From: a virus
Taxonomy: Duplodnaviria; Caudoviricetes
DNA length: 58,221 nt
IMG/VR virus record: IMGVR_UViG_3300048591_001185
Location: 1-58,221 of that record
Strand: one strand, 5' to 3'
The notes under the pieces were generated by a model that was given only the letters and a program-made list of their open reading frames with translations, was not told where the DNA came from and made no database searches. Position numbers and translations under genes: made by a program. Below, piece by piece: positions 1-58,221 of this stretch (position 1 is the first letter of the stretch; each line of letters begins with the position of its first letter).

Positions 1-4
1 TAGA

Positions 5-916
5 GTGCTTAAACAAGAAAATAAGGGCATTGAAGGATTAGATTTTTCTTTAATTAAGACTTGTACAAATAAATTATTAGATATTTGTAACATTCCTAAA
101 ATATCTGTTGGAATAATAGTTTACAACGGTAGTGATTATATTGAGCAGGTTATTAGGTCAATTTATGAAGTGGTGAATCAGGTGATAATAGTTGATGGTG
201 CAGTGAAAGGATATGGTGCTGTAAAACCATATAGCACAGATGGTACTATTGAAAAAATTAAAAAATTAAAAAATGAAATCGATATTTTAGACAAAATTGA
301 GCTTGTTGAGAATGGTGAAAAGTTTTATAAAGATAAAATTGACATGCAAAATGAAATAGCTAAAAGAGTTACTGGGGAATATTATGTTAAAATGGATGCT
401 GATGAGATATGGAAAAAGGAAACATTGTTGGATGCTATTACATATATGAAAGTAAATAATGTTGATGTATTGAGAATGCCATTTTATCATTTTTGGCTAA
501 GTTTTAAGAACATTGCTGTTGATAGTAATGGTAAATGGAGCACTAAACATCCAAGAATATGGAAATGGAATGAAAAATTTAGTCACAAAAATAGTTTCAA
601 TTATTTCCAAGATAAAAATGGTGCCAAAGTATCAGCACCAAATTATAATGAACAAGAATTTAATGGTGACAAAATATATCATTTTGGCTATGTTAGAAAG
701 TTAGAAATATTGAAACAAAAATTAGAATATTATAGAACAAGGGGTATTGAAAAATATTTCACAGATACTGTAACAAAATGGAAGGAATTAAATGATCCAA
801 CTCAACCAACTCAAAAATCTGATTCATGTGCTAAAAAATTTACAGGTGTCTTACCTGATGTTTTAAATGAACATCAATATTTGAATGTTAATGATATAAG
901 AGAATATAATGACTAA
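5..916 (+). CDS. GT2-like (GT-A fold) glycosyltransferase, probably 5'-truncated by the window edge
   Basis: ISVGIIVYN..IIVDG..STDGT, DxD motif MDADE, IYHFGY; the frame is open to the window start. Confidence 0.8.
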   Translation: MLKQENKGIEGLDFSLIKTCTNKLLDICNIPKISVGIIVYNGSDYIEQVIRSIYEVVNQVIIVDGAVKGYGAVKPYSTDGTIEKIKKLKNEIDILDKIELVENGEKFYKDKIDMQNEIAKRVTGEYYVKMDADEIWKKETLLDAITYMKVNNVDVLRMPFYHFWLSFKNIAVDSNGKWSTKHPRIWKWNEKFSHKNSFNYFQDKNGAKVSAPNYNEQEFNGDKIYHFGYVRKLEILKQKLEYYRTRGIEKYFTDTVTKWKELNDPTQPTQKSDSCAKKFTGVLPDVLNEHQYLNVNDIREYND

Positions 917-2093
917 ACAAATAATGAATATGGTAAATAACACAACTAAGAAAATAATGAACACAATGGAAGTATCTTCAGAAAAAATATTAAATGAAGT
1001 ATCTTCAGAAAAAATATTAAATGAAGTATCTTCAGAAAAAATATTAAATGAGGCAGGGTTAGAGATGATAAAAAGAAATAAAATAAAAAAATTGCCACCT
1101 ATATTAGATGTTGATTTGGAACATCTTGAATTAACATATAATTTTCAACTTAGTAAAAATTATCACAATAATAATGATTTAATTAAAATATGTTTCTATT
1201 CTCATTGCTTAAAAGATTGGAGAACATATATGAATTGGGGTGATTATTGGGTATTAAGGCAGCTACAATTTTATATAACTGAATTATATGGTGATAAAGT
1301 AAAGGTAGTGCCTGAAATTGTAGATGCTGATGTAGTGATATATTTATTTGGTTCAAATTATGATAATATTGATAAAAATAAATTTAATATAATTTGGCAT
1401 TATAGTCACCCTGAAAAAGTGAGCCCTGAAGAAATCAAAAAATATGATTATATGTTTTGTGCCTCAAGTAAATTTATTGATAAAGTGAAAAAATGGAATA
1501 TTGATAAATGTGTATTAGATACAGAACCATTATATGCCTGTACTGATTTTAAGTATAAGTCAAAAGTAAAATATGATATTGATGTTTTGTTTATAGGGAA
1601 TGCAAGAAGTAATTTACAGTATGGTAGAAAATCTATATATGATTTGAACTCAATAGCTAAAGATGAATGGAAGGTTGAATTGTATGGTGCTAAGTGGGAA
1701 TTACCCAGATATATTTATTCTCATAAATGGTATAAGGGCAAATACATACCTTATGATAAGTTGCCTGAAATGTATGCTGGTGCAAAAGTTAATTTAATTG
1801 ATGGACATGAAGAGATGCAAGATGCAGGATTTGTTTCAGCCAAAATATTTGATACAGCAGCAGCTGGTGGAAATATAGTAATGAAATACAATTCAGGAAT
1901 AAAGGAATTGTTTGGTGATAAAATAAAAATGTATCATAATTCCAAAGAGATGTGGCAACTGATTGATGGTGAAATTAAAAAACCAACTTTGAAAAAAGAT
2001 TTGAAAGAGCTGTCAAGAATTGCTAAAAAACACTCATATAAAAAAGTTGTCAAAAGAATATTTGGTGTGATTGAAAGGTATCATAATGGATAA
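909..2093 (+). CDS. CgeB-like (GT-B) glycosyltransferase
   Basis: WGDYW, DVLFIGN, ELYGAKW, YAGAKVNL, KIFDTAAAGG, HSY near the C-terminus, as in CgeB/Glyco_trans_1_2 proteins. Confidence 0.75.
   Translation: MTKQIMNMVNNTTKKIMNTMEVSSEKILNEVSSEKILNEVSSEKILNEAGLEMIKRNKIKKLPPILDVDLEHLELTYNFQLSKNYHNNNDLIKICFYSHCLKDWRTYMNWGDYWVLRQLQFYITELYGDKVKVVPEIVDADVVIYLFGSNYDNIDKNKFNIIWHYSHPEKVSPEEIKKYDYMFCASSKFIDKVKKWNIDKCVLDTEPLYACTDFKYKSKVKYDIDVLFIGNARSNLQYGRKSIYDLNSIAKDEWKVELYGAKWELPRYIYSHKWYKGKYIPYDKLPEMYAGAKVNLIDGHEEMQDAGFVSAKIFDTAAAGGNIVMKYNSGIKELFGDKIKMYHNSKEMWQLIDGEIKKPTLKKDLKELSRIAKKHSYKKVVKRIFGVIERYHNG
969..1049 (+). repeat. Perfect in-frame 27-bp tandem repeat x3 (EVSSEKILN)
   Basis: GAAGTATCTTCAGAAAAAATATTAAAT at 969, 996 and 1023. 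Confidence 0.95.
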
Positions 2094-2661
2094 GAAATAT
2101 GACAAAAATCCAAATACAGTTGAGTCATTGAATTGGCTATATTCCAAAAGATGGTCACCAGCATCTGAAAGAGAAAATGATTGGATGTATCCGTACATTG
2201 ATAAGCTATTGAAGGAAAATAATTTTGAAAAGATTTTAGAAGTTGGGTGTGGATTTGGTAAAACACTTTCATATATACAAAAGAAAATTCAAAACAAAGC
2301 TATATTAAAAGGCACTGACATTAATAAAATAGCAATGGAAAAAGGTGCTGAATATTATGATGGAATTATTTTTGAACAAGCCAATTATGAAACTGTAAAG
2401 GAAAATGAAGTTTGGGATTTCATTATTTGTTCTCAAACTCTTGAACATGTTGACAATCCTGTATTAATGATTAACAATATGAAAAGTGCTTTGAAGGAAA
2501 AAGGAACATTGTTGATAACAGTGCCCTGGCCAAAATCTAATTTAGACAATGGAGTGAAAGCACATTATTGGAGATTTTATGATTCAGATTTTAAGAAATT
2601 ATTGCCTGGATGTAAGGTGGAAAAATCAACAACAAGGATGGTAGTCATATGGACAAAATAA
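2071..2661 (+). CDS. Class I SAM-dependent methyltransferase
   Basis: ILEVGCGFG motif I, GTDIN, WDFIICSQTLEHV, LLITVP. Confidence 0.85.
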   Translation: MKGIIMDKKYDKNPNTVESLNWLYSKRWSPASERENDWMYPYIDKLLKENNFEKILEVGCGFGKTLSYIQKKIQNKAILKGTDINKIAMEKGAEYYDGIIFEQANYETVKENEVWDFIICSQTLEHVDNPVLMINNMKSALKEKGTLLITVPWPKSNLDNGVKAHYWRFYDSDFKKLLPGCKVEKSTTRMVVIWTK

Positions 2662-3446
2662 ATTATTATGATACAGATTTGGTGAATAAGATAATTGCCA
2701 ATTGGAAGTATAAAAAAATTGATGTATGTATATCAACTTACAATAGAAAATCATATTTGGAAAAAGTGGTGAACAGTTTATTGGCTTCAAGTCAATACAT
2801 AGGAAATATAATTGTTGCTGATGATGGCAGTGATGATGGCAGTTTAGAGCTATTGGAAAGCATGTTGAAAAGGGGCAAGATACAAAAGTTGATTAAGTGT
2901 AATAGAATTGGAACAGCTAATGTGCTCAATGCAGCAATAAATAATAGTGAATCTGAAATCATATTAATAAGCAATGATGATATGTATTTCCATAGACATT
3001 GGCAATATGCTGTAATGTATGCCTTTGAAAATTTAGAAGAATGTGGAATGGTTACAATATATGATTATGCCAAAGCATCAATGAGAGAAGATGGATTTAT
3101 AAAGGTTGATGATAATTTTGACTTAATAAAAAGAAGTGGAATGGGGTGTACAGCAATTAAGAAAGAAATGTTTGATATGGTTTGTGGATTTAATTTGCCT
3201 GCTAAAAATAAGATGGGATTTTTTGCCAGTACATTTTGTGAAAAAATAAAAAAATTGGAATGTAAAAATAAACTTCATTATATAACAAGACCAAATTTTG
3301 CAACTCATATTGACCACCCAAAAAATAGTTTATGTGATAGGGATATATTGGAGCAGTACAATCAATTTAGGTCAGAGAATAAAAAAGGAAAATCAACAAA
3401 AAATTATCTCAATCAATATAATATAAAGGAAACAGGCAATGAGTGA
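2649..3446 (+). CDS. GT2 family glycosyltransferase
   Basis: ISTYNR, IIVADDGSDDGS, SNDDMYF. Confidence 0.85.
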   Translation: MDKINYYDTDLVNKIIANWKYKKIDVCISTYNRKSYLEKVVNSLLASSQYIGNIIVADDGSDDGSLELLESMLKRGKIQKLIKCNRIGTANVLNAAINNSESEIILISNDDMYFHRHWQYAVMYAFENLEECGMVTIYDYAKASMREDGFIKVDDNFDLIKRSGMGCTAIKKEMFDMVCGFNLPAKNKMGFFASTFCEKIKKLECKNKLHYITRPNFATHIDHPKNSLCDRDILEQYNQFRSENKKGKSTKNYLNQYNIKETGNE

Positions 3447-3966
3447 AATTATTAAACTAAATATTGGAGCAGGTGGAACAAAGAAAGATGGATTTGTTTC
3501 AGTTGATGCTTTTAATAAAAAGGCAGACATACTTGCACCAGCAAATGATACTGGATTTAGTGATGATTCAATTGATGAAATTTTTAGTTCACATATGATA
3601 GAACATATTGACAGAGCCCAACTGCCTGATGTTTTATCACATTGGTACAACATTTTAAAAAAGGGTGGTAAGGTTCATATATTAGTACCCAATGCTCAAT
3701 TGTATTTGAAAGAATGGTTGGCTGCTGTTGAAAGAAAGGATTGGGAACATTTAGAAGGTTGGGGCACCAGATGGATAATGGGATTTGAAGGCAAAGGAAC
3801 TGGAATGTATCATGTAAATTTATTCCACCCAGAAACATTAAAAAGAGCACTTGAGAAAATAGGATTCAAAGTTGAATCTTGTGGTGCAGTACCAACCAGA
3901 GTCAAATCAATGACTCATTTTGAGTACAGAAACAATGGAGACATAGAATGCATAGCAATAAAATAA
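3439..3966 (+). CDS. Methyltransferase type 11-like protein
   Basis: LNIGAG, DEIFSSHMIEHI, LKKGGKVHILVPN. Confidence 0.8.
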   Translation: MSEIIKLNIGAGGTKKDGFVSVDAFNKKADILAPANDTGFSDDSIDEIFSSHMIEHIDRAQLPDVLSHWYNILKKGGKVHILVPNAQLYLKEWLAAVERKDWEHLEGWGTRWIMGFEGKGTGMYHVNLFHPETLKRALEKIGFKVESCGAVPTRVKSMTHFEYRNNGDIECIAIK

Positions 3967-4931
3967 ATATAATGTATTTGGGTGCTTTTGGAAAACATTG
4001 TTCAGATTCTTACAGGTTGAAAGGAATAAAAGAAAGTGGAATGTACAATTTGGTATGTTGGTTAGATTATAGAGAATTGCACAAACAACATGGTGATAAT
4101 TTTGTTTACAAGATTAATGAAATGATTGGTGATAATGAGCCTGATGTTTTATTGATAAACAAAGGTGAGCTAATAACTGGTGACCATATAAAATATTGGA
4201 AAGAAAATTTTGAAAATTTGGTTGTTGCTTATTGGTATGGTGATATGAGAGATGGAATATCAGAATATGTGCTTGATAAAATTTCAGGAATTGATTTATT
4301 CCTTACCAATTGTGATGAAGATTGGTATGTTGATGAGATAAGTAAATTGGGTATTGATAAGCATAGAATATTTTTCAGTCATACAGCAACTGACTGTGAT
4401 ACATTTAAGCAACAAAATGTAGAAAAGCAATATGATATAATATTTTTTGGTGGCAATTATAAGAATAAATTTGACCACAGTGAAATAAGAACTAATTACA
4501 TACAAAGACTTATTAATTCAGGCAAGTATAGTATAAAAATATTTGGGTTGAATTGGAATACATTAGGTGCTGCTGAAAGACCAGTGTATGGTGATACATT
4601 TTCTAAGCAGGCCAGCAAAGCAAAAATAATACTTGGGTTCAGTTCATATCTTGATAGAAATCATTACACCAGCAATAGAATTTGGAACAGTATGGCTTGT
4701 GGATTTCATTTGACTCATTATTTTAAGGGCATTGAAGATTATTTTGAGAATGGAAAAGATTTAGTTTGGTTTGATACTTATGAAGAGATGGACAAACAAA
4801 TTGATTATTATTTGAAAAATAAAAAAGAAAGAAATGAAATATTTTTAAAGGGCAGGGAAAACATATGTAACAATCATACATATAAAAATAGGGCAATTGA
4901 AATGTATAAAATTTTCAAAAAATTTTTATAG
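3948..4931 (+). CDS. CgeB-like glycosyltransferase
   Basis: YWYGD, YDIIFFGG, IFGLNW, SNRIWNSMACG, HTYKNRA. Confidence 0.8.
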   Translation: MHSNKINIMYLGAFGKHCSDSYRLKGIKESGMYNLVCWLDYRELHKQHGDNFVYKINEMIGDNEPDVLLINKGELITGDHIKYWKENFENLVVAYWYGDMRDGISEYVLDKISGIDLFLTNCDEDWYVDEISKLGIDKHRIFFSHTATDCDTFKQQNVEKQYDIIFFGGNYKNKFDHSEIRTNYIQRLINSGKYSIKIFGLNWNTLGAAERPVYGDTFSKQASKAKIILGFSSYLDRNHYTSNRIWNSMACGFHLTHYFKGIEDYFENGKDLVWFDTYEEMDKQIDYYLKNKKERNEIFLKGRENICNNHTYKNRAIEMYKIFKKFL

Positions 4932-4940
4932 GATAATGAC

Positions 4941-5465
4941 ATGCTGAGACTGAAATATTTATATAAAGATAACTGTTCATGGCAAAATCTTGAATTTCTA
5001 AGGAATACAAGAAGTCACCCAAATATCATTGAAAATGTATTTCATAGCAAAAAAATTACAAGAATAGAACAAGAAGAATGGTATGAAAAAGATTATTCAG
5101 CTGACCCAAATTATATGATATGGATTGTTTATGATGATGATAAACAATCCCCAATAGCTTATATACAATATCACTTGGAAAGCCTGATACACAGAAGATG
5201 TAATGTTGGATATGTTATTTCACCTGAATATTCATGTGTTTCAAATAATTATGATAAAAAAGTAATAAAAGAAATGATTAAAAATGTTAAAGGTTGGAAG
5301 GATGAAATACATAGACTTGAAACTAAAATTTTTACAACAGATAAAATTAGAATTGAGAAATTAACTGATTGTGGGTTTGAAATTGATGGAATTATTAGAG
5401 ATTACATTTTTAAAGATAGTGAATATAGAGATGTTTATTTGCTGTCATATTTATTAGGTTCTTAA
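4941..5465 (+). CDS. GNAT acetyltransferase (RimJ/RimL/PseH-like)
   Basis: ITRIEQEEWY, VGYVISPEY, CGFEIDGIIRD..YRDVYLLS. Confidence 0.7.
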   Translation: MLRLKYLYKDNCSWQNLEFLRNTRSHPNIIENVFHSKKITRIEQEEWYEKDYSADPNYMIWIVYDDDKQSPIAYIQYHLESLIHRRCNVGYVISPEYSCVSNNYDKKVIKEMIKNVKGWKDEIHRLETKIFTTDKIRIEKLTDCGFEIDGIIRDYIFKDSEYRDVYLLSYLLGS

Positions 5466-17621: not shown

Positions 17622-20600
17622 ATGGCAACCAGTAAATTTATAAAAATATTAAGAGATATTAATGGTGTCATTCACAGTGGTGCAAAGCTATATGTAGTGC
17701 CACAAGCCAACACCTATCCAACAGGTGCATTGATATTAACTGAATCAGCCAGCAAACCAGGTTACTACAGCAGAGATGCCCTTGCTGATGGTGAATATAA
17801 AATTTATTTGGATAGTGAAGGCACTGGTGTACTTGATGATACTGTGTTGTATGAAGAACATGTTTGGCACGGTGAATTAAGACAAACAACCATTGCAAAT
17901 AGATTTAATAGTTCAGCTGAATTACAAACAGCAGGAATAGCAGATAATGCTGTAACTACAAATAAGATAGTTAATAATAGTATTTCAGATGTTAAAATTA
18001 TTAATGATTCAATAGGAACATTGAAACTTGTTAATGCTGCAGTTACACCAGTTAAAATGGCAGCCCAAACAGCAACAGTAACAAGTTTAACATCACCAGC
18101 ACCAAGTTACATAGGGCAAAAAGGAAGAAGTGCTGGTGGTTTAATGTACACAGCTATTGCCTTAACTGGCACTTGTTGGGAATTAGATTTGGGTGGTGCT
18201 ACACCATTATCAGTAAAAAGTGTTACAGACCATTTTGATAGTGGTGATAGTTATAAGTTAAAGAGCAGTGGAATAAAAGGTGCTGCAATAATAAATTCAA
18301 AACTATTTAGCCAAGCAGTAACTATTGATAAAATATCGTTTGTAAAATATAGCAAAAATCTTTTCAATAAAAGTGATATAACAAGTGGCTATTATGTAAG
18401 TAATGTCAATGGAACAAATACAGCAAACAAATCATATTCAGCTGCCAATACATATATTCCAGTATCTCCAAGTACAGATTATTTTGCTAATAAATTGACA
18501 AGAATGGCTTTTTATGACATTGACCAAGTTTATATTTCTGGATTATACATATCAGCAAGCACTGGTGGGCTAATGGCAACACCAGCCAACTGTTATTATA
18601 TAAGGGTTTCACTATTAACTGTGGATATAGATGATTATCAAGTTGAGGTTGGAGGCTCTGCAACATCTTATGTTGATTATTCTGCAACATTAAATTATGT
18701 TGATTTAACAGATGCACAGCTAAATGCAAAGATTATTGAGGGTTCTTTGCACCCAGTATTTCAAATTGATTTATATGGTGCATCAACCATAAATATGTTT
18801 GATGTTGATAGTATCACAACTGGCTATTATGTTGATTGGACTGATGGTGTGTTAGATGCAAATGTAGGTTTTGATGCGTCTGATTTTATGACAGTAAAGC
18901 CATCAATGGACTATAAGAGCAATTTCACAATAAGACATTATGCTTTTTATGATTTGAATAAAGTATTTATTAGTGGTGCATCATCAAGTGTTACTGATTT
19001 AACAACACCATCAAATGCCTATTATTTAAGGGTGTCCTTTACACCAACATCATCACCAGTTCATTCATTAAAGCAAATAGAAGAAGGCACAACTGTGTCA
19101 ACATTTGAAAAATATGTTAAATCAAGTGTGTTACACGAGAAACAAGTTTTAATAAGACATTTGAACGATGTTTTATATGGGAACACATCTAATAACCTAT
19201 TCAATTATGCAGCCATCACAGAGGGTCATTTTGTTGATTCTGTTCATGGTGATTTAGATGTTAATGCTACTTATGATGCTTCTGACTATGTTAAAGTAAC
19301 ACCTTCAACAGATTATGTTAGTAATTTTTCTATTGTCCATCATGCTTTTTATGATAATGATAAAAAATATATTTCTGGTGCAAATGGGATTGTTACAAAT
19401 ATTACAACACCAGCCAACTGTTATTATATAAGATTTTCAATATTTGCTTCTGAATCACATACTGGAAAACAATATGAATTGGGAACATCAGCAACTATAT
19501 TTGAGAGTTATACAGAAGGGTTTAAATTATCTGATAGACAAGTGAAAAAAAAACATTTAGATTTGTCAATTGCTGCTGACCCAGTTGCTCCAAGAATAAT
19601 TATGCCAGATGAATATGTGGCAGTTGTTGGCACAAAACTGCAAATATTTTACAGAGGTATAATTGAAGCCAAAAATCCAATGAACTATTTTATTCAGATA
19701 GATTGTGCAAAAGGCAAAGATTTTATTAGATACTTTGAATACACTCCAGTGATTGGGGATGTTGGGGATGTTAGTTTCAAGGTTTCATTATTTAATGATA
19801 GTGCTGTTGAAGTAGCTACCAAAACAATAAATATTAAGGTTGTTAGTCAAGTTGGTGATCCAGCATCAACAACAAATATTTTAACAGTTGGTGATAGTTT
19901 TAATAATGGTGCATTAGATTGGGGTTCAGTTTTGGCAAAGCAAGTCTATTCTGGGACTAATTTAATGACCGGACTAACAGCAATATCAAATATTGAATTT
20001 GTGGGTGAACTTGGAACTTCACCAGAACAATATACTGGTTATGGTGGTTGGGAATTTGAAGAGTACAATTCAGAGCCAGATGCAACAACATCTAATGTTT
20101 GGGTTTATTGCACACATGATAAAGATGCAAGTGACCAAGAAAGTATTTGGATAGATTCTAATTCAAAAACATGGCAATTAGAAACCATTGAAACAAATAG
20201 ATTGGAATTTAAGCATTATGGCACAAATGTTTCAGAAGTAATGCCAGCAAGTGGAATACTTACACATTCAAGTGCTGCAACTCATACAACAGATATTACA
20301 TATACATCAACACAAGTAGCAGATTCTAATCCATTTTGGGATTCAGTTGGTGGTGATGTTGATTTTCATAATTGGTTTGCAACAAAATATCCAACAAAAG
20401 AAAGTGGTGGTGAAGTAATAGATGCTTGTTTTATTATGTTGGGATGGAATGGCTTAGTTATGAATGCACCATTAGCAGCAGACCAAGAAACATTCATAGT
20501 CAAAGCAAGAACATTTCTTGATAATTTACACACAGATTACCCAAGTTGTAAAGTTTATATTATGGGTGTGCAAGTGCCATCTGTAAATGGTGGATTAGGT

Positions 20601-32509: not shown

Positions 32510-32550
32510 GCTGTGAAAATAAACTAAAAATAATAATAAGGAATAGTAAG

Positions 32551-32782: not shown

Positions 32783-32815
32783 AAATAACATTAACAAACA
32801 TAAGGAACAAAACAG

Positions 32816-33480: not shown

Positions 33481-33531
33481 TTGGATAGATAAATTACATA
33501 TATTGTATATTAAAAGCAAATGGAATAAGAT

Positions 33532-35581: not shown

Positions 35582-35596
35582 AAATTGGTATTTATT

Positions 35597-35956
35597 ATGA
35601 AGAAAAATTATACATTGTGTTTTTATGAATATCCTGGTGCATTAATGGAAATTAAGCAGTGGGAAAATTTGAAATTTGATTCTATAATTCACAAAGAAAT
35701 TTGGGATGATAAAACAAGACTTTATGAAATAAAATTAGACAAAGATAAGTGTGATGGATTTGAAGTGGAAATTTTATTTTGTATAGCAATGGATAATATT
35801 GGTTTTGTTAGTAATGCATTTTCATCAGTGATGAATACTGTTTTCAATCTTAAATTAGTATATTACAAAACAATAATATTTGGCAAGGTTGATATTAAAT
35901 GGATAAATAAAATACAAAAAATAGTTACAGGGTTGGAAAAAGAAAATGGAAAATAA
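35597..35956 (+). CDS. Hypothetical protein
   Basis: ORF within the operon, preceded by TTGTATATTA. Confidence 0.5.
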   Translation: MKKNYTLCFYEYPGALMEIKQWENLKFDSIIHKEIWDDKTRLYEIKLDKDKCDGFEVEILFCIAMDNIGFVSNAFSSVMNTVFNLKLVYYKTIIFGKVDIKWINKIQKIVTGLEKENGK

Positions 35957-36902: not shown

Positions 36903-37652
36903 ATGAATAAAGTTGTTATAATAACTGGTGCTTCAAATGGTATTGGATTATCATTAGCAGAAACACTTGCTGAAAATGGTTATATAGTATTCAACCTTGA
37001 CATTGTATATCCAAATAAAATAGGTGGTGGTATATTCATTAAATGTGACATTAGGGATTATAAACAGATTGAATCAGCAAAAAGGGAAATGGAAAAAATT
37101 GCTTGTGATATTAATCCTGATTATAAATTAATTTCACTTGTTAACAATGCTGGTGTTAATTATTTAGATTGGTTTGATAAAATATCTCAACTTGATTTTA
37201 ATAGAGTAATAGACACAAATGTCAAGGGAACATTTTTTACAACTCAAGTTTTTTTACCAATGCTTGCTAAACATAAATCATCAGTTATTAATGTTGTTAG
37301 CAATGCTGCTGATAAGCCAATGACTTGTTCAAGTGTTTATAATGCAAGTAAGGGTGCTGTTAAAATATTGACAAGAGAAATGGCCAGAGAATTAACACCA
37401 AAGTTTGGTATAACAGTATTTGGCATTTCTCCAAATAAAATATTGGATACAATGATGAGTGAGTATGTGGATGAAGTTGTACCTGATATTAGGGGATGGA
37501 CTAAAGAACATGCTCAAGAATATGAAATAAATGGCATACCTTGTAGAGAAAATACACCACTGAAAGTTTTTACAGACCATTTAGCATATTTAGTAATGCT
37601 TGAAGATGATAATAAATATATGTCTGGGAATATAATTGAATATGGAGTTTAG
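36903..37652 (+). CDS. Short-chain dehydrogenase/reductase
   Basis: TGASNGIG, NNAG, YNASK. Confidence 0.9.
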   Translation: MNKVVIITGASNGIGLSLAETLAENGYIVFNLDIVYPNKIGGGIFIKCDIRDYKQIESAKREMEKIACDINPDYKLISLVNNAGVNYLDWFDKISQLDFNRVIDTNVKGTFFTTQVFLPMLAKHKSSVINVVSNAADKPMTCSSVYNASKGAVKILTREMARELTPKFGITVFGISPNKILDTMMSEYVDEVVPDIRGWTKEHAQEYEINGIPCRENTPLKVFTDHLAYLVMLEDDNKYMSGNIIEYGV

Positions 37653-37654
37653 AA

Positions 37655-38044
37655 ATGAATATTTTTGAAAGAGATAGGAAAAATGTTATATCAAATGCTG
37701 ATGCAAGATTGACTGAAGCTGAAAAAACTGGTATGAAAACACAACATGAATTTGAATTGATATTAAATGAAGCAGCAAATTTGAGAATGGAAAAAGTTTT
37801 ACAATATGGTGAAGAAAGGTATGATGAAAAAGATATTGATGTACAGCTATGGATGTTATATTGTGATATTTGGCGCAAGTTTAGTAGATTAAGGAAATTG
37901 ATAAAAAATATTATAAAAAATGAAGATTTGAAAAGTGTTGAAAAATTAAGAGATGACTGTTTGGATTTGCTTAATTATGGTGCCATGGGGGCTCAAATAA
38001 TAGACAGACTTGATTTGATAAATAAGTTTAATAAGAAACAATGA
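37655..38044 (+). CDS. Nucleotide modification associated domain 1 (DUF1599-like) protein
   Basis: K..QYG..KFSRL..DDCLDLLNYGAM pattern. Confidence 0.6.
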   Translation: MNIFERDRKNVISNADARLTEAEKTGMKTQHEFELILNEAANLRMEKVLQYGEERYDEKDIDVQLWMLYCDIWRKFSRLRKLIKNIIKNEDLKSVEKLRDDCLDLLNYGAMGAQIIDRLDLINKFNKKQ

Positions 38045-38742
38045 TAAAAATTTATAAAATTGAAAATATAGAAAGTGGAAAAATATATGTTGGTCAAACA
38101 TCAAAAAAAGGTAGAATGTGGAAAAATTATTATGGTAGTGGTGTTCATATAAAAAAGGCAATTAAAAAATATGGTAGGAATATTTTCAAAAAGAAAGTTT
38201 TGTGTTATTGTGGAACACAAAAATTAGTTGATGAAAAGGAAATATTTTACATAAAAAAGTATGATAGTCTGAACAATGGATATAATGAATGTCCTGGTGG
38301 AAGTGGTGTTGGAAGTGGTGAAGGAACACCATGGTATGGAAAGCATCATTCAGATGAAACAAAAAAGAAAATTGGCAAATTTAATAAGGGAAAAAAATTT
38401 TCAGATGAAATTAAGAAAAAGATGTCTGAATCAGCAAGGAAAGTTTGGGAAAATATGGAAGCTGAAAAAAGACAAAAGATGGAAGCAAGATTAAAAAATA
38501 CTGGTTACAGAAATATGGGTGATGAAGAAAAGAATGAATTGAAAAAGAAGCATAGCAAAAGGATGAAAGAATATTGGAAAAATCTTACACCAGAACAAAA
38601 GAAAAATAAATTGAAAAATATGGTTTCAAAAATTACACCAGAACAAAGAACTGAATTTGCTAAAAATGCAAATAGTCACAAAAAAGTCGATCAACATCAA
38701 AAAAAGGAACAAAACAATGGAAAAGAAAAAGACACCATTTAA
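38041..38742 (+). CDS. Free-standing GIY-YIG homing endonuclease with NUMOD3 repeats
   Basis: IYKIEN..IYVGQT, YYGSG, GYN..GG, GKHHSDETKKKI. Confidence 0.85.
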   Translation: MIKIYKIENIESGKIYVGQTSKKGRMWKNYYGSGVHIKKAIKKYGRNIFKKKVLCYCGTQKLVDEKEIFYIKKYDSLNNGYNECPGGSGVGSGEGTPWYGKHHSDETKKKIGKFNKGKKFSDEIKKKMSESARKVWENMEAEKRQKMEARLKNTGYRNMGDEEKNELKKKHSKRMKEYWKNLTPEQKKNKLKNMVSKITPEQRTEFAKNANSHKKVDQHQKKEQNNGKEKDTI

Positions 38743-39544
38743 CACTCTTGATAAAATGAAAACAGATGAAAAGATAGCAAATGCAATATCACCATTGAAT
38801 CTTGGACAGATTAATGAAGGTGTAAAAAATATTAAGGTCAAGATATTAGATTGGCCAGATGAAAAAAGAATGAAGGTGCTGCTTAGTAAAATGGTACAAG
38901 CAACCATTGGTGGAAATATTGAAGAAGAAATTAATGAAGAATTAGGTGAAGAACTTTTCAAAGGTGGATTACAGACTGGATTGGAAGCATTTAATGTTAG
39001 TTTTGAAATAAGTGGAGTAAGTAGGGCATTCACTCACCAATTTGTTAGAACAAGAAAAGCAGCATATCATCAACAATCAAGCAGATATACTTATATGGGT
39101 GATATGTTTAATGTAAGGATGCCCCAAACTATTGCTGACAACCCTGAAGCTAAAGCAATCTTTGAAAATTTTGTAAAGGTTTCAAGAGAAACATATGCAA
39201 AATTATGTGAGTTAGGTACACCTTTTCAAGATGCAAGGTTCACCTGCCCTGTTGGATTGGAAACATATATAATTGGTGAATTTCCATTAAAGGTTTTTAT
39301 GGACACATATCAATATCGTGGATGCATAATGTTCCAGTGGGAAATTACTCATGTATTTCTAGAGATGAGAAAACAACTAATTGAAAAATTACCATTCCTT
39401 GAACCATATATAAAAATCAGTTGTGAAAAGAATCACAAGTGTACATTTCAGGGCTGGGAAAATGTTGAAGAATATTGTGACTTGCCATGGGCTGGTGATA
39501 GAGTTTTCAAAAGTGAACATTTCACAAGTAATAATAAAAAATGA
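38717..39544 (+). CDS. thyX: FAD-dependent thymidylate synthase (ThyX) homolog with a variant signature
   Basis: FEISGVSRAFTHQFVRTR..QQSSRY, QDARF, QWEI; AAGGA SD before ATG 38717. Confidence 0.8.
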   Translation: MEKKKTPFNTLDKMKTDEKIANAISPLNLGQINEGVKNIKVKILDWPDEKRMKVLLSKMVQATIGGNIEEEINEELGEELFKGGLQTGLEAFNVSFEISGVSRAFTHQFVRTRKAAYHQQSSRYTYMGDMFNVRMPQTIADNPEAKAIFENFVKVSRETYAKLCELGTPFQDARFTCPVGLETYIIGEFPLKVFMDTYQYRGCIMFQWEITHVFLEMRKQLIEKLPFLEPYIKISCEKNHKCTFQGWENVEEYCDLPWAGDRVFKSEHFTSNNKK

Positions 39545-40208: not shown

Positions 40209-43200
40209 ATGTCAAAAATAGAATCAGTTGATTTTATACACCTTCACTGTCATTCAGAATATTCAGCACTTGATGCACTGCCTAAAGTTGAAGAATATGT
40301 AATAAAAGCTGCAGAGCTGGGCATGAAAGGATTAGCACTTAGTGAGCATGGAAACATGCGTAGTGTTGTTCAATTATTCATAAAATCAAAAGGCAAATTC
40401 ACTTTTAATGGTGAAAAATATGACCTGGCACCCATCAAACCAATTTCTGGAATTGAATTTTACATGTCTCCAATAAATCATCTTATCAAAGGAATTGATG
40501 AAGGTGAAAAGGCAGCCTTGAAAAATAAATGTTCAAATACAGCAGAGTATAAAGAAAAATTAAAAGAACTTGAATCCCAAAAGCAGGTAAGAAAAAGATA
40601 TCATTTACTTGCTTTTGCTAAAAATAATATTGGTTATAAAAATTTATTAATGCTGAATTATTTGTCTTGGAAAGATGGTTTTTATTATAGACCCAGAATT
40701 GATTTAGAATTATTGAAACAATATTCTGAAGGTTTGGCTGTAACAACAGCATGTATAGGTGGATTTGCACCAAGTTTATGGATTGATAAGAAACAAGATG
40801 AATCCTATATTTGGCTGAAAGAAATGAAAAAACTTTTTAAGGATGATTTATATGTTGAAATTCAGCCACACAACATTGAAGAACAAAGAATTGCTAATAT
40901 AGGAATGATACAACTTGCTGATGAATTAAAAATAAAGATTGTTGCCACCAATGATTGTCATTACTTGAATAAGGATGATTACAAGGCTCACAATGTTTTA
41001 TTAGCAATTCAATCTCATAAGCCATTGCAATCTGCTGATGCATGGAGATTTGATGACAATGCATTTTATATGAAAGACAAATGTGAAATGTTGGAATCAT
41101 TTTCAATAAATCACCCAACACTTAATAAACAGTTAGTTGTCAATGCCCTTGAAAATACAATGGAGATATATGAGAAATGTAATGTTGAATTATCAATTGA
41201 TAAAAAGCAAGGTATATTGCCTAAAGTTACAATACCAAAAGAATATAAATCACCAAAAAGTTATTTGATAAAATTATGTAAGGATGGTTGGGTTTGGAGA
41301 AATATTAAAGTAAGGGCAGAAAATTATTCTAAAAAAAATAATATAACTGAAATTAAAAGTTATAAAATGTATAAAGACAGGCTAAAACATGAACTGGATA
41401 GAATTGTAAGGTTGAGATTTGAAAAATATTTTTTAATAATACATGAATTGATATGGTGGGCAAGAAACAATGATATAATGGTCGGGCCAGGTCGTGGAAG
41501 TAGTTCAGGTAGCTTAGTGTGTTATCTGATAGGTATTACATCAGTTGACCCAATAGAATATGACTTGCTGTTTGATAGATTTTTAAATGAAAGTAGGATT
41601 GATTATCCAGATGTTGATATGGACTTTGAAGATACCAGAAGGAAAGAAATTTTCAAACATTTGTTTGATAAATATGGTTATGATTATGTTTCTTTGGTTG
41701 GAACTTTTGGAAAATTAAAGGGTAAACAAGCCCTGCAAGATGTTAGTAGAGTGCATAGCATAGATTATAGAGAAGTATCAGCAGTTACAAAACATATCAT
41801 AATAAGGTCAGGTGGTGATGCAAGAGCCAACCAATCAGTTGAAGATAGTTTCAAAGAGTTTGATGTGTGTAAGCAGTTTGATAAAAAATATCCAATGGTA
41901 TTGCCTTTTGTTAAAAAGTTGGAAGGGAAAATCAGGCAAGTTGGTATTCATGCCTGTGGGATACAATTATCACCAACTGTGATGGAAAGGTTCATACCAG
42001 TTGAATTCAGAGAAATAAAAGGTGAAGATGAAATAAAACTTTGGGGCACTAATAGATTAAAAGTGTCTGGAATTGACTGGCGTGATAGTCAGGATTTAGG
42101 ATTGGTTAAGATAGATGTGCTTGGATTGAAAACATTATCTGTTATAAAAGAAGCATTGAATGCTATTAATAAAAGGTATGATAAAAAGATTGATTTGGAA
42201 AAAATTAGTTTGGAAGACAAAAATGTATTAGGTGGTTTTACAAAAGGTGATTTTGTAGGAATATTCCAATTTGATAGTATTGGTATGACAAAGACTTGTG
42301 AGAAATTAAAGTTCACTGAATTTGAAGATATAATAACAATGAATGCTTTGTATAGACCTGGTGGCATGAGATGTATAAGTGGTGATACTAAGATAATGCA
42401 AAATTGGTGGGATGATAAAAAAAGAAATAATACCAAAAGATTTGTTTATTTAACAATTAAAGAAATGTATGAAAAATGGATTGATAATAAAATAAATCCT
42501 ATCAGAACTATTTTGTCATATGATAAAAACACTGGTAAGGTGGTCAGGAATGAAATAATAAAAATTGAAAAATCTGGTATTAAAAAAGTTTATAGTTTGG
42601 ATGTTAGATTATTTCAAAAGAAAAGTAAGTGTAATAACAATCCAAATAGAACCAGGAACTTAAAAACATCATCAGAGCATATAATAATGACTTTGGATGG
42701 TTGGAAAAAAATGGGTGATATTGAGATAGGAGATTATGCTCTTGTTAAATATAGTAACACAGTTGGTAAGTCAAAAAGAAAATATGGTATGCATCATATA
42801 TCAGAACATAATAAAAGAATGCACACCTTACAAGATAGAGCAAAATTTTTCTATAAAGATAAATGTTTTATTTGTGGATATGATGTTTTTACTGATGTTT
42901 GTCACATTGATAAAAATAGGAATAATAATAGCATTGATAATTATTTAATTCTTTGCCCAAATCATCATAGAGAATTTGATGGGGGTGTTTTAAAATTAAG
43001 TGATAATAAAATCACAAAACTGAAATCAGAAAATTGGCTTGGGAATAGCTATGATGATGATTTTGTTTTCTCTAAAGTAATGAGAAAGAATTATGAGGGT
43101 GAAGTAGAAACATATGATATTGAATGTAAATCACCATTAAATAATTATATTGCTGGTGAAGTTGTTGTTCATAATTCAGGTCTGACACAACATTTTGTGA

Positions 43201-45746
43201 ATAGAAAAATAGGAAAAGAAAAAGTTGAAAAGTTGCACCCAATTTATGATGAGATAACAAAAAGCACTTTGGGAATATTAGTATATCAAGAACAACTGAT
43301 AAAATGTTTTGTTAATCTTGCTGGCTATCACCCAGGCACAGCAGATGAAATTAGAAAAGCTGTGGCAAAAAGTTTTGGTGTTGAGTTTATTAATAAACAA
43401 AAGGAAATATTTGTTGAAGGTGCTGTTAAGAATGGTATGGATGTTAAGAAAGCTAATGAGCTATTTGAAAATATTTCATTCTTTGGGTGTCTTACTGGTG
43501 ATACATTGGTACATAGGATTAGTGCCAACCAATATCAGAAAGAACAAATATCATTGAGTGATTTATATGAGTATCAAAATAAACCTTATAATAATTTGCT
43601 GTATAAGAAATTAAAATTGAAATGTTTGATTGAAGATGAAGCTGTGGTAAAATATAATGACATGATTAAGGTTGTGAAAACTGGTGTTAAGAAAGTTTAT
43701 TTGGTTGAGACTGAATCTGGTAAGTTTTCAAAATCAACAATGGAACATGGTTATAAATTAAAAGATGGATGGAAGAAATTAAAATCAATAAATATAGGTG
43801 ATGAAATATGTGTCACTGATTTTGAAAAGCCAAAAAATAATTTAGGCATTGGCAAGGGCGGCAGGTCAAAGGGCAAGACATATAAAAATCATGGATTGCA
43901 AAAAGGTGAAAAAAATATAAATTATGTGAATGGTGTAACTGGTAAGGATGTTGAGTCAAGAAAAGCAATGGTTGAAGAACATGGTGAAAAGTGTATGGAA
44001 TGTGGTTCAACAAAATTTATAGAACAGCATCATAAAGATTTTAATCACAGTAATAACAAAAAAAATAATTTAATACTGCTTTGTAGGAAATGTCATAGAA
44101 ATAAACATAGTCATCAACTTAAAAGATATACAAAAGGATATTCAGTAAGGTATGAAAAGGTTATTACTATAAAATATTTGGGTGAAGAAGAATGTTATGA
44201 TGTGATGATGGAAAATCCAAATAATAATTTTGTTATAAATGATGGAATAATTGTTCATAATAGCTATGCATTTAACAAAGCTCATGCTGCAGCTTATTCA
44301 GTGATAGCTTATTGGGGGATGTATTTGAAAGTTTATTATCCAACAGAATTTTATTATGCTTTGATGAATAAAGAAAATGATATGGCTGAAATTCTAAGGT
44401 ATGTCATTGTTTCAAGAAAAGCTGGAGTTGATGTACAGATTGCTGATATCAATTTTGCTGACATTAATTTCAAAATAAAAGATGATAAAACAATTATTAG
44501 TGGGTTGGCAGATATCAAAGGATGTGGTATAAAAGCAAGTAATGAAATAGTTACCAACCAACCATACTCATCATTAAGAAATATGGTTGATAAAGTAAAT
44601 AGAAGGCAAGTACATAAAGGTGTAATTACATCACTTGTAAAAGCTGGTGCATTAAGGTCAATGTATCCAAATATTGGGGCATTACTTGAAGAAGTGAATT
44701 ATGATAATAGGAAAGAAAGAAACACAGGGGAACTTATCATCAAACCTGTTTGGGAATGGATGCTGATGTTAAGTGAAGAGGATGGAAATTTGTTATATAA
44801 GAATTGGGAAAACAAACTGGGAAATATGGATGAAGAACAACAGGTGAAGATAATGTCACAAGTTTGTCCAATACCACCTTATAAACATAAAATTGAATAT
44901 TATGATGGAACAATTAGAAAAATAATGAAAGATAGAAAAAATCTTGAGTTATATATACAACCAGATGAAAATTATGATAATGAATTAGAATTTAGTGAAT
45001 CAGGTTTGCATAGAAATAAAGGAATATTTATTGGTACATTGGTTGATATCAAATATAATAATGTTGGTGATTTTCATAAAGAAGAACCAGACAGTCAGGA
45101 AAAGAAAAGAATTGGTTGGGGTAAAAGATATTCAAATTTGAATATAGAGAATGTTTTGGGTATTAAAAGAGTGAATGTGGATATTTATACTTTTCCAACT
45201 TATAGACAAGTGATTGACAAAGGTTTACAAACACCAGTGTTAATCATAGGTTCTGTGTTAAAATGGAGTGAAGTGATATATGCTGATATTATTATTGATT
45301 TAGACCATTTTAGAGAAATTATGGAAATGAAATTGCCTATTAAACAAAGATATAATGAATTATTACCACAAGAAAAATATTTGTTGAAGCACCCAACAAC
45401 TTTCCATAATAAAGAAATGAAATCAAACTTAAAAAATATAAAATTTGACATCACTAAAGGTACAAGGCAAGTGATAGTTCTTGTTACAAGAGTAAAAAAT
45501 CATTGGACTAAAAAAGGTAAAAAAATGATGTTTATTGAGTTGGAAGATGAAACATCATATTTGTCAGTGATTGCTTGGCCAGAATGTGTTGTAAGGAATA
45601 GTAATAAAATGAAAACAGGTATGGTTGTTAAATTGTATATCAAAAAAAATAAAGATGGATATTTTATAGATGAACAAAGAAAGATTGAAATGATTAAAAA
45701 ATATTGGGAACAGGTTGGTACATCTGCTGGGGATATTTATAATTAA
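40209..45746 (+). CDS. dnaE: DNA polymerase III alpha subunit (family C) with two inteins
   Basis: PHP HLHCHSEYS, ATNDCHY, GPGRGS, PDVDMDF, KIDVLGL, YQEQ, YAFNKAH; C-terminal OB fold. Confidence 0.95.
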   Translation: MSKIESVDFIHLHCHSEYSALDALPKVEEYVIKAAELGMKGLALSEHGNMRSVVQLFIKSKGKFTFNGEKYDLAPIKPISGIEFYMSPINHLIKGIDEGEKAALKNKCSNTAEYKEKLKELESQKQVRKRYHLLAFAKNNIGYKNLLMLNYLSWKDGFYYRPRIDLELLKQYSEGLAVTTACIGGFAPSLWIDKKQDESYIWLKEMKKLFKDDLYVEIQPHNIEEQRIANIGMIQLADELKIKIVATNDCHYLNKDDYKAHNVLLAIQSHKPLQSADAWRFDDNAFYMKDKCEMLESFSINHPTLNKQLVVNALENTMEIYEKCNVELSIDKKQGILPKVTIPKEYKSPKSYLIKLCKDGWVWRNIKVRAENYSKKNNITEIKSYKMYKDRLKHELDRIVRLRFEKYFLIIHELIWWARNNDIMVGPGRGSSSGSLVCYLIGITSVDPIEYDLLFDRFLNESRIDYPDVDMDFEDTRRKEIFKHLFDKYGYDYVSLVGTFGKLKGKQALQDVSRVHSIDYREVSAVTKHIIIRSGGDARANQSVEDSFKEFDVCKQFDKKYPMVLPFVKKLEGKIRQVGIHACGIQLSPTVMERFIPVEFREIKGEDEIKLWGTNRLKVSGIDWRDSQDLGLVKIDVLGLKTLSVIKEALNAINKRYDKKIDLEKISLEDKNVLGGFTKGDFVGIFQFDSIGMTKTCEKLKFTEFEDIITMNALYRPGGMRCISGDTKIMQNWWDDKKRNNTKRFVYLTIKEMYEKWIDNKINPIRTILSYDKNTGKVVRNEIIKIEKSGIKKVYSLDVRLFQKKSKCNNNPNRTRNLKTSSEHIIMTLDGWKKMGDIEIGDYALVKYSNTVGKSKRKYGMHHISEHNKRMHTLQDRAKFFYKDKCFICGYDVFTDVCHIDKNRNNNSIDNYLILCPNHHREFDGGVLKLSDNKITKLKSENWLGNSYDDDFVFSKVMRKNYEGEVETYDIECKSPLNNYIAGEVVVHNSGLTQHFVNRKIGKEKVEKLHPIYDEITKSTLGILVYQEQLIKCFVNLAGYHPGTADEIRKAVAKSFGVEFINKQKEIFVEGAVKNGMDVKKANELFENISFFGCLTGDTLVHRISANQYQKEQISLSDLYEYQNKPYNNLLYKKLKLKCLIEDEAVVKYNDMIKVVKTGVKKVYLVETESGKFSKSTMEHGYKLKDGWKKLKSINIGDEICVTDFEKPKNNLGIGKGGRSKGKTYKNHGLQKGEKNINYVNGVTGKDVESRKAMVEEHGEKCMECGSTKFIEQHHKDFNHSNNKKNNLILLCRKCHRNKHSHQLKRYTKGYSVRYEKVITIKYLGEEECYDVMMENPNNNFVINDGIIVHNSYAFNKAHAAAYSVIAYWGMYLKVYYPTEFYYALMNKENDMAEILRYVIVSRKAGVDVQIADINFADINFKIKDDKTIISGLADIKGCGIKASNEIVTNQPYSSLRNMVDKVNRRQVHKGVITSLVKAGALRSMYPNIGALLEEVNYDNRKERNTGELIIKPVWEWMLMLSEEDGNLLYKNWENKLGNMDEEQQVKIMSQVCPIPPYKHKIEYYDGTIRKIMKDRKNLELYIQPDENYDNELEFSESGLHRNKGIFIGTLVDIKYNNVGDFHKEEPDSQEKKRIGWGKRYSNLNIENVLGIKRVNVDIYTFPTYRQVIDKGLQTPVLIIGSVLKWSEVIYADIIIDLDHFREIMEMKLPIKQRYNELLPQEKYLLKHPTTFHNKEMKSNLKNIKFDITKGTRQVIVLVTRVKNHWTKKGKKMMFIELEDETSYLSVIAWPECVVRNSNKMKTGMVVKLYIKKNKDGYFIDEQRKIEMIKKYWEQVGTSAGDIYN
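42372..43175 (+). mobile_element. Intein 1 in DnaE (268 aa) with HNH endonuclease
   Basis: LYRPGGMR|CISGDT ... TYDI..NNYIAGEVVVHN|S; CFICG..HIDKNRNNNSIDNYLILCPNHH. Confidence 0.92.
43488..44261 (+). mobile_element. Intein 2 in DnaE (258 aa) with HNH endonuclease
   Basis: FFG|CLTGDT ... CYDV..NNFVINDGIIVHN|SYAFNK; CMECG..HHKDFNHSNN..NLILLCRKCH. Confidence 0.92.
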
Positions 45747-57000: not shown

Positions 57001-57455
57001 AAAAATACAACAGATTAATAAAAATAATATCAGGTGGTCAAACTGGTGTGGATATAGCAGGGTTAGAATTTGCTAAAGAAATAGGGCTTGAAACAGGTGG
57101 ATTTGCACCAAATGATTTTGTAACAGAAAAGGGTAAAAATTTTGATTTAGAAAAGATATATGGTCTGAAAGATTCTGGTAAAGGGTATGCAGAAAGAACT
57201 AAAATGAATGTGAATGATTCAGATGGTACTTTATTGTTTATAGAAAAAACTTCACCTGGTTCAGTGTTGACTTTGAATGCTTGTAGAAAATTAAGAAAAC
57301 CATGTTTGGTTTCTTTTGATACAGAAAAAATAGTCAAATTTCTGAATGAAAACAATATAAAAATTATCAACATAGCTGGTAATAGAGAAAGTGTATCACC
57401 AGGAATATGTGAAAGGGTGAAACAAAAATTAAGAAGTGTGATAACTAATGAATAA
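56997..57455 (+). CDS. YpsA/SLOG-family ('putative molybdenum carrier') protein
   Basis: IISGGQTGVD, TGGFAP, RTKMNVNDSDGTL, NIAGNRES. Confidence 0.8.
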   Translation: MKKYNRLIKIISGGQTGVDIAGLEFAKEIGLETGGFAPNDFVTEKGKNFDLEKIYGLKDSGKGYAERTKMNVNDSDGTLLFIEKTSPGSVLTLNACRKLRKPCLVSFDTEKIVKFLNENNIKIINIAGNRESVSPGICERVKQKLRSVITNE

Positions 57456-57468
57456 AAAAAGATAAAAT

Positions 57469-58221
57469 ATGCCAAGTCTGAATGGAATAAATAAAACATT
57501 TAATAATATTGTAATATTGATTGATGGTATGAACATGTTTCATCGTCAATATTATGCATTTAATCAATATGAGTTTGGAACTGCTTATGGTTTTTTGAAT
57601 GCATTGATGAAATTTTCAAAAGACTTAGGTGTTAATAAATTTATTGTTTGTTGGGATGGTGATAAAAATTGGAGAGCTGATTCCAATAGCACATATAAGG
57701 AAACAAGAAAAATACAAAGAAAACAATATACTGAAGAAGAAAAAATCCAATTTAATAAGGCATTAAAAACAACTAAAGAATTATTGACAAATTTAGGTGT
57801 TGTACAAATGTTGGATGAAAAGTATGAAGCTGATGACTTGATAGCATACTTTGTTAATATGTATAAAACTGATGTGACAATAGTAAGCAATGATAAAGAT
57901 TTTTTGCAATTGGTGGATGATGAGAAAAATATAAAGGTATTGAAACCAATTGGTAAAGGTGAATATAAGTTATTGGATGAGAAAAATGTAAAAATAGAAT
58001 TTGGTGTTGAACCAAAGGATATAACAAAATTCTTAGCAATAGCTGGTGATACATCAGATAATGTAAAAGGTGTATATAAAATGGGCAGGATAAAAGCAAT
58101 TAAATTAATAAATGAAGGTAAAATTGTTAAAAGTAAATTAAAAGAAATATTCAACAAAGAACAATTACATCAGTTCATTGAAAGTTATAAGTTGGTTAAG
58201 TTGGGTGATGATAGGATACAT
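57469..58221 (+). CDS. 5'-3' exonuclease/flap endonuclease (PolA N-terminal-like), 3'-truncated
   Basis: Manual translation: LIDGMNMFHR, CWDG, YKETR, EADDLIA, SNDKDFLQL, GDTSDNVKGV; absent from the ORF track because it runs off the window. Confidence 0.9.
   Translation, partial: MPSLNGINKTFNNIVILIDGMNMFHRQYYAFNQYEFGTAYGFLNALMKFSKDLGVNKFIVCWDGDKNWRADSNSTYKETRKIQRKQYTEEEKIQFNKALKTTKELLTNLGVVQMLDEKYEADDLIAYFVNMYKTDVTIVSNDKDFLQLVDDEKNIKVLKPIGKGEYKLLDEKNVKIEFGVEPKDITKFLAIAGDTSDNVKGVYKMGRIKAIKLINEGKIVKSKLKEIFNKEQLHQFIESYKLVKLGDDRIH

Follow-up and report, generated by a model that had tools for sequence, protein, structure and literature searches.

M.MpeI and M.SssI are CG-specific methyltransferases of CpG-poor Mollicutes. 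Mycoplasma penetrans, according to the parts of a broad study of bacterial CpG bias drawn on here, combines a CpG methyltransferase with strong under-representation of CpG (PMC11282364). The same parts of that study report that bacterial CpG content varies widely with a strong phylogenetic signal and that phage CpG content tends to track that of the host; they describe ZAP/TLR9-type CpG sensors as encoded only by vertebrates, raise a DNA bendability hypothesis for the CpG depletion of thermophilic bacteria, call the reasons for the bias in bacteria and phages unknown, and consider it unlikely that phage CpG content is due to specific bacterial defence systems (PMC11282364). Our literature search, made in a limited collection, found no other broad study of bacterial CpG bias and no phage described as nearly devoid of CpG. 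Here we describe a tailed phage from which this dinucleotide has been almost completely purged. The stretch analysed, referred to below as the window, is the entire 58,221-nt record IMGVR_UViG_3300048591_001185 of a Caudoviricetes virus, which is open at both ends and has a CheckV completeness of 60%.

A depletion of CG independent of context and codon phase

The window retains 45 CG dinucleotides where its base composition predicts 1146.8, an observed-to-expected ratio (rho) of 0.04 and a loss of about 96%; the Poisson probability of this deficit lies below the computable range. The control dinucleotide GpC is normal (rho 1.29), while TG and CA stand at 1.46 and 1.47. A preliminary description made from the sequence by eye had put the remaining CG at about 45-50 against roughly a thousand expected and had called TG and CA abundant, and the exact counts bear out both statements. 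The deficit is even along all 58 kb, with the remaining CG at the following positions:

Remaining CG, first 15: 127, 280, 2192, 7122, 10159, 10323, 10754, 11562, 14008, 15729, 16469, 16724, 17870, 18337, 18877
Remaining CG, middle 15: 19136, 19166, 19970, 20609, 20652, 23252, 23404, 23720, 25518, 25801, 26634, 26796, 29315, 34364, 37874
Remaining CG, last 15: 38688, 39317, 40359, 41483, 41493, 42081, 43859, 47987, 49553, 54275, 54868, 54882, 55654, 55737, 57544
Longest CG-free stretch, about 5 kb: 29316..34363

The tail gene at 17622..20906 keeps the most CpG of any gene, 8 against 3.6 under an even rate; this excess (P=0.03, uncorrected) is not significant across about 65 genes.

With 23,365 A, 17,750 T, 11,080 G and 6,026 C, the window has a guanine-plus-cytosine (GC) content of 29.4%. 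Its 66 open reading frames (ORFs) span 95% of the sequence under the standard code, every long frame lies on the + strand, and TGA is a stop codon. CpG was counted by codon phase over 18,598 codons and in 2,719 bases of non-coding DNA:

Codon phase 1-2: 13 CpG observed, 228 expected
Codon phase 2-3: 11 CpG observed, 384 expected
Codon junction (phase 3-1): 20 CpG observed, 380 expected
Non-coding DNA: 1 CpG observed, 40.7 expected, a depletion of about 40-fold

This breakdown by codon position, which the preliminary description had proposed, places the deficit at all three phases, with a depletion of about 18- to 35-fold per phase and about 20-fold at codon junctions. Arginine is encoded by AGA or AGG in 558 of 571 codons, as had been noticed by eye, and the four NCG codons sum to 11. 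Among synonymous codons that end in C or T, C is used in 20 of 3128 cases (0.6%) before G and in 883 of 3193 (27.7%) before A (Fisher 4e-226). The preliminary description had also raised the prospect that CpG might look near-normal once codon usage was modelled. It does not: 200 runs of a synonymous-codon shuffle, in which proteins and codon usage were preserved, predict 423.5±16.5 coding CpG against the 44 observed, and place 399.5±16.5 of them at codon junctions (minimum 352 in the 200 runs), where 20 are observed. The junction deficit, the scarcity of C before G and the loss from non-coding DNA show that codon-usage bias alone does not account for the loss.

All 16 NCGN contexts are depleted, with 0-6 occurrences observed against 12-185 expected. 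The palindromic NCGN words are not below their Markov expectation (ACGT 4 against 5.3, TCGA 6 against 5.0) and lie at 0.68-1.21 of it, excepting GCGC (1 against 0.4) and CGCG (0 against 0). Since every NCGN word is depleted and the palindromes stand at the Markov level, the target is CG itself and not a set of 4-base sites. The CpG loss is thus a DNA-level process aimed at CG, and not an outcome of codon usage, of composition or of summed restriction sites. The preliminary description had offered three causes, namely long-term CpG methylation with deamination, selection against CpG-recognising host defences, and a cost tied to the phage's own base modification; the core that they have in common, a DNA-level process on CG itself, is upheld, and no single one of the three is singled out.

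Phages that share or lack the depletion

Among 50,697 phage records there is no close relative of the window: megablast returned nothing, DnaE matched at no more than 33% and RecA at no more than 60%, and a 1418-aa protein had no match. Known phages show the following CpG rho values: 0.67 in a Clostridium perfringens phage (31% GC), 1.07 in Mycoplasma phage MAV1 and 0.59 in Acholeplasma phage L2, the last two of which rule out Mollicute phages as a model. Relatives were instead found among viral and metagenome contigs, which are named here by our working labels. Two of the 80 viral contigs found with RecA have a rho below 0.1, and the remaining 78 lie at 0.30-1.26. One of the two, G001 (CheckV completeness 24%), is a syntenic relative in which 17 of the 68 proteins of the window have matches at 26-71%, with 28 CpG in 23 kb (rho 0.05); the other, G002 (67% complete), is an unrelated 69-kb phage with matches to 3 of the 68 proteins and a rho of 0.07. 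The Chryseobacterium phage that gives the best match to the G002 portal has a rho of 0.76. Among 80 metagenome contigs that a search with the polymerase recovered, L172 (70% identity, rho 0.075) and L173 (58%, 0.118) are the closest; L188 (rho 0.079) and L213 (0.18) are more distant phages of the same build, and polymerase relatives at 41-44% identity have a GC content of 36-65% and rho values of 0.59-1.51. Viral scans with the tail protein, a terminase-small-like protein and the G002 portal brought nothing new. The TG/CA rho* is 1.23-1.51 in all seven CpG-poor contigs and 0.89-1.14 in all 14 of the other low-GC viral contigs that carry RecA. A separate case is L258, with a DnaE 40% identical to that of the window, a ThyX-like match, a CpG rho of 0.13, TG/CA of 1.06 and 33 CTAG; its poverty in CpG, which no TG/CA surplus accompanies, is of another type.

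The record derives from a metagenome and both of its ends are open, which invites the suspicion that assembly or sequencing chemistry produced the deficit. We find this scarcely credible, given that the reading frames are intact, with arginine recoded to AGA/AGG and not broken, and that the depletion is even over 58 kb and recurs in independent contigs of other records. Short contigs with 0-3 differences from the window occur in freshwater, activated-sludge and wastewater runs of three studies; contigs of 349, 231 and 205 bases, from runs of three studies, match it with 0 differences.

The sharpest contrast is provided by G709, which a second viral scan brought to light, a contig of 87,945 bases with terminal repeats, rated 100% complete, which is collinear with the window and matches 32 of 68 window proteins at 27-62%. 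It contains 807 CpG (rho 0.50), spread evenly (0.32-0.69 per 8-kb segment), and 208 CGN arginine codons. Between the window and G709, CG differs at 0.04 versus 0.50 and TG/CA at 1.40 versus 1.20, while delta* over the other 13 dinucleotides (without CG, TG and CA) is 0.035. As the two signatures nearly match save for CG and TG/CA, the CpG purge is a trait of one lineage within the family, laid over a common background. These two syntenic phages, whose CpG differs 14-fold, form a natural contrast, and the question of cause becomes testable through the short list of gene differences that separates them.

A phage could also lose CpG passively, by drifting along with a host made almost CpG-free by something other than methylation, for instance DNA mechanics or biased repair, and the tendency of phage CpG to follow that of the host, as given in the cited parts of the bacterial study (PMC11282364), speaks for such mirroring. 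We surveyed 702 bacterial genomes from two phyla, 401 in the first (the centre metagenome-assembled genome (MAG) being labelled Bacteroidales) and 301 in the second (centre MAG labelled Eubacterium), for a pattern made up of three CG at short spacing, its reversed form (GC) serving as control:

Window, CG pattern/control: 0/161
G001, CG pattern/control: 0/54
G002, CG pattern/control: 0/175
Lowest among the 401 genomes of the first phylum: 1966/23551 (0.083)
Lowest among the 301 genomes of the second phylum: 221/4654 (0.047)

None of the 702 genomes from these two phyla approaches the phage level; were the lowest bacterial ratios to apply, zero matches would arise with a probability of 5e-4 in the window and 5e-7 in G002. 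A CpG-free host may belong to one of the other key low-GC groups, namely Bacilli and Mollicutes, Patescibacteria, Campylobacterota and Fusobacteriota, which gives mirroring some room. The sister phage G709 nevertheless has the same signature bar CG, TG and CA with a rho of 0.50, and under the strong phylogenetic signal of bacterial CpG related hosts should not differ 14-fold; in addition, the phage itself encodes the DnaE, DnaB, primase and RecA with which it replicates. We therefore consider passive mirroring quite unlikely.

As to the identity of the host, a RecA scan of genome contigs gave 55-63% matches over many phyla, chiefly Acidobacteriota, and is uninformative, and homologues of the SDR protein come from mixed taxa. 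The named homologues of the tail protein are SGNH hydrolases of Niallia and Staphylococcus, which match only in part and at 30-37% identity; together with a 33.6% match to a Clostridium perfringens phage, they give a weak hint of a Gram-positive host. Because TGA is a stop codon in the window, a Mycoplasma or Spiroplasma in which TGA codes for tryptophan is ruled out as the host.

Two 4-base palindromes are also rare. The window has 6 GATC, where base composition predicts 140 and the Markov model 127 (0.05 of the Markov value; Poisson 4e-46), and a single CTAG, where they predict 140 and 50 (0.02; Poisson 7e-21), exactly the counts that the preliminary description had approximated:

GATC sites: 794, 11563, 19857, 27819, 38689, 47615
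Sole CTAG: 39359..39362

TGCA, AGCT, CATG and GTAC, which had been called common, occur 198, 149, 105 and 95 times, although TGCA (0.64), CATG (0.52) and AGCT (0.74) are somewhat low against the Markov expectation. The rarity of GATC is confined to the window (38 against 59 expected in G001; 125 in G709, where it is not rare), and CTAG is missing from G001, from G002 and from the CpG-normal sister G709, so both are separate from the CpG loss. The rarity of GATC in this phage and of CTAG in the entire family are ordinary avoidance effects: the pattern of type II restriction-site avoidance fits GATC and CTAG and does not fit CpG. Elsewhere, the viral contigs L017, L065 and L260 have zero GATC in 17-22 kb with CpG rho values of 0.37, 1.25 and 0.26; with CpG ordinary or only moderately low in them, complete GATC avoidance is common and independent of CpG. 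G002 shows a palindrome profile of its own, with no GGCC (63 expected), no CCGG, CGCG or GCGC, AGCT at 67 against 213, and GATC enriched at 336 against 213.

The GATC purge, which is selective in nature, equals the CpG purge in depth (both 0.04). That a phage-specific purge of this strength (6 against 140) stands in the same genome lends weight to the idea that a host defence nuclease or sensor reads unmodified CG, or very short CG words, and that CpG-poor phage variants escape it. None of the 702 sampled bacterial genomes is anywhere near as depleted as the phage, the loss recurs in the unrelated G002, and the trait is patchy among relatives, as are defence systems. An enzyme that cuts any CG would, however, still cut the 45 remaining sites, and the CG effect accounts for the whole depletion of the palindromic NCGN words. 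We know of no prokaryotic nuclease with plain CG as its target, and the literature search found none that recognises it. On these grounds we hold a CG-reading defence to be unlikely as the cause.

Candidate causes and gene content

The explanation that we place first, tentatively and with less than even confidence, is CpG methylation with deamination, with methyl-dependent restriction, or with both. It starts from a CG-specific, context- and phase-independent, lineage-specific depletion accompanied by a gain of TG/CA. We propose that this lineage of phages was purged of CpG by a process that acts on the dinucleotide as such. A putative CG-specific methyltransferase, like those of some Mollicutes, would methylate cytosine at CpG in the phage DNA within the host; the enzyme might be encoded by the host or by the remaining roughly 40% of the phage genome. 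Methylated CpG would then be lost by deamination to TpG/CpA, and may also be counter-selected by restriction enzymes that cut methylated CpG. Two elements of the methylation-deamination pattern are present, namely a deficit in all contexts and a matching surplus of TpG/CpA, and the depletion is patchy among related phages, like mobile methylase or defence genes.

What we infer here is the methylation, the enzyme and how mutation and selection are balanced, and the substitution patterns bear on the last of these. In an alignment of the polymerase, 23 columns contain a CpG in at least one of four relatives; 3 of these are common to two relatives and 0 to three, and with so few columns in common the remaining CpGs turn over. 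In the NCN fourfold boxes A is up relative to G709 (0.59 versus 0.47) and T is down (0.34 versus 0.43), so that A took the place of the lost G, as would be expected of a transition. Where a fourfold site precedes G, T reaches 0.63 in the window against 0.36 under a proportional model and 0.42 under a model in which all C goes to T; general time-reversible (GTR) models with C-to-T raised 20- to 200-fold give T before G of at most 0.42. The sister G709, however, already has T at 0.60 at these sites, and the fourfold test within the window therefore says nothing about deamination. The excess of T over A before G (0.60-0.63 over 0.28-0.32) is a feature of the CpG-poor window and the CpG-normal G709 alike, and the TG/CA surplus is about twice the CpG deficit. 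Given this prior preference of G709 for T before G, the TG/CA excess argues only weakly for deamination.

Several observations weigh against methylation as the cause. With G709 as the baseline, the lost C before G did not go specifically to T. No methyltransferase of PF00145 (C5), PF01555 (N4/N6) or PF02086 (Dam-type) was found in the window, G001 or G002 (60%, 24% and 67% complete), none of PF00145 in the complete G709, and no Pfam methyltransferase family among the 10 ORFs of L173 that were scanned, out of 18 of at least 150 aa. A search for CpG methyltransferases, which the preliminary description had proposed, thus yielded no such enzyme in the recovered parts of the window's genome, G001 and G002 or in the complete G709. 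A CpG-methylating host should itself be CpG-poor, yet no sampled genome approaches the phage. Vertebrate CpG has a rho of roughly 0.2, far above the 0.04 of the window. To our knowledge, CG-specific methyltransferases have been described only in Mollicutes, and the two Mollicute phages checked, at rho 1.07 and 0.59, are not depleted.

The gene content of the window places these readings in context. The window represents about 60% of the genome of a tailed phage of roughly 90 kb, which has its own DnaE, RecA and SbcCD, and the missing roughly 33 kb of the genome corresponds to positions 17-50 kb of G709. It encodes structural proteins (head-tail adaptors, a tape-measure protein and tail proteins), replication and repair proteins (an SNF2 helicase, DnaB, primase, DnaE with an intein, RecA, SbcCD and RuvC), a MazG-like protein, a 5'-3' exonuclease and a nucleotide-metabolism block; no tRNA was found in it. 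The coding strand is strongly purine-loaded, every 4-kb segment having a GC skew of 0.18-0.38 and an AT skew of 0.05-0.20. The features referred to here are:

5..5465, + strand: glycan-type cluster of GT2, GT1-like, class-I S-adenosylmethionine (SAM) methyltransferase, GT2, class-I SAM methyltransferase, GT1-like and GNAT genes
17622..20906, + strand: tail protein gene; homologues are SGNH/GDSL-hydrolase tail proteins, with no match in G709
34589..39544, + strand: nucleotide-metabolism block upstream of the polymerase
34589-35581: FAD/NAD-binding protein, within the nucleotide-metabolism block
35946-36902: HAD/NT5C 5'-nucleotidase-domain protein, within the block
36903-37652: SDR, within the block
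38041-38742: GIY-YIG endonuclease, within the block, overlapping the start of the ThyX-like ORF
38657-39544: divergent ThyX-like protein, within the block
39541-40206: DUF559 (Vsr-like fold) protein, between the ThyX-like gene and DnaE
40209..45746, + strand: DnaE-type DNA polymerase III alpha with intein, the marker for finding relatives

The cluster at 5-5465 comprises four glycosyltransferases, two methyltransferases and one GNAT directly upstream of the head-tail genes, and may decorate the virion, the cell surface or DNA. Both of its class-I SAM methyltransferases match small-molecule families and no tested DNA methyltransferase family. The G709 version of the cluster is smaller and lacks both methyltransferases. 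The GIY-YIG and DUF559 proteins look like free-standing homing endonucleases, the latter having no counterpart in G001, G709 or other relatives. The window's DnaE measures 1845 aa, where G001 has an open frame of 1369 aa, and its intein contains an HNH endonuclease; in the distant relative L213 an intein of this type, likewise with an HNH endonuclease, sits in RecA (7280-9124) instead. At 56997-57455, next to the 5'-3' exonuclease, lies a circularly permuted YpsA (SLOG) family protein, which is weakly conserved in G709.

The nucleotide-metabolism block bears on the possibility that the cause lies in the phage's own DNA chemistry, a replaced or modified pyrimidine in CG being either restricted by modification-dependent enzymes or unstable, so that CpG is selected out. 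The NT5C protein has homologues in the CpG-poor L172 (50%), L173 (44%) and L188 (29%), the last of which also matches dUTPase_2 at its N-terminus, and neither a homologue nor a PF06941 match occurs in the complete, CpG-normal G709. The FAD/NAD-binding neighbour is common to L173 only. The ThyX-like protein of the CpG-poor members is divergent, with a partial profile match, an RHR motif that reads RTR and an E value of 5e-9 to a solved ThyX, while the ThyX of G709 is a full-length match (profile 1-190). In L173 (3726-9643) a class-III aminotransferase gene and one that is spermidine-synthase-like come after the ThyX-like gene and immediately before DnaE, a set that suggests the synthesis of an aminated or polyamine-bearing nucleotide. 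The unrelated CpG-poor G002 encodes a 351-aa ThyA-like protein (29075-30130; L168 9075-10130, minus strand) in which a Ser aligns with the catalytic Cys; its RSxD region is replaced and interrupted by an insertion, and the Asn of the FNIASY motif is retained. The idea of a cost from the phage's own base modification in the preliminary description thus gains some support, in that the CpG-poor relatives have a nucleotide-pool enzyme that the CpG-normal sister lacks.

Set against this, the sample is tiny, with four carriers that are not independent and one non-carrier, and G002 has neither ThyX nor NT5C in its 67%. The window has the nucleotidase protein, the MazG-like protein and the divergent ThyX-like protein as possible parts of a hypermodification system; no enzyme of proven base-modifying activity was recognised among its proteins and no hallmark base-modification enzyme was identified, and genome-wide base replacement alone fails to explain an effect limited to CG. 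The 5-hydroxycytosine pathway, in the part of its description used here, concerns ThyA homologues and has no bearing on the ThyX-like gene of the window (PMC13326640). The gene content, drawn from very few, related genomes, is a lead towards a modified pyrimidine, and as the cause of the purge we think such chemistry improbable.

While CpG methylation is the explanation that we place first, we offer a further reading as a speculative possibility. Environmental bacteria may carry an undescribed immune or modification activity that reads bare CG, either directly or on modified cytosine, and this activity may have driven at least two unrelated phage lineages of freshwater and wastewater to shed about 95% of their CpG, while a sister phage that did not meet it would have kept normal CpG. 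If a CG-reading defence, or a nuclease dependent on modification in a CG context, were indeed at work, it would represent a new kind of phage-host conflict.

Comparison with known systems

Thermophilic bacteria offer one precedent for CpG depletion; in contrast, the near-identical pieces of this phage come from freshwater, activated sludge and wastewater, and because of these habitat labels an explanation by thermophily was set aside. The viruses of vertebrates, which face ZAP and TLR9 sensing, resemble the window in that their CpG lies far under the prediction from base composition, whereas the window, with its tape-measure protein and head-tail adaptors, comes from a tailed phage.

Restriction-site avoidance in phages is matched in the window by GATC (6 against 127 under the Markov model), whose loss is strain-specific, and by CTAG (1 against 50). 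The CpG loss differs from it in striking a 2-base word in all 16 of its contexts, and we know of no restriction enzyme with a 2-base CG specificity.

The methylation-deamination systems of vertebrates and Mollicutes differ from the window in that no DNA methyltransferase was found in the examined phage records, and the depletion of the window is several times deeper than that of vertebrates; the Mollicute systems differ further in that the window uses TGA as a stop codon. What the window shares with the methylation-deamination systems is the form of the depletion: a deficit specific to CG, a surplus of TG and CA, and independence of flanking bases and of codon phase.

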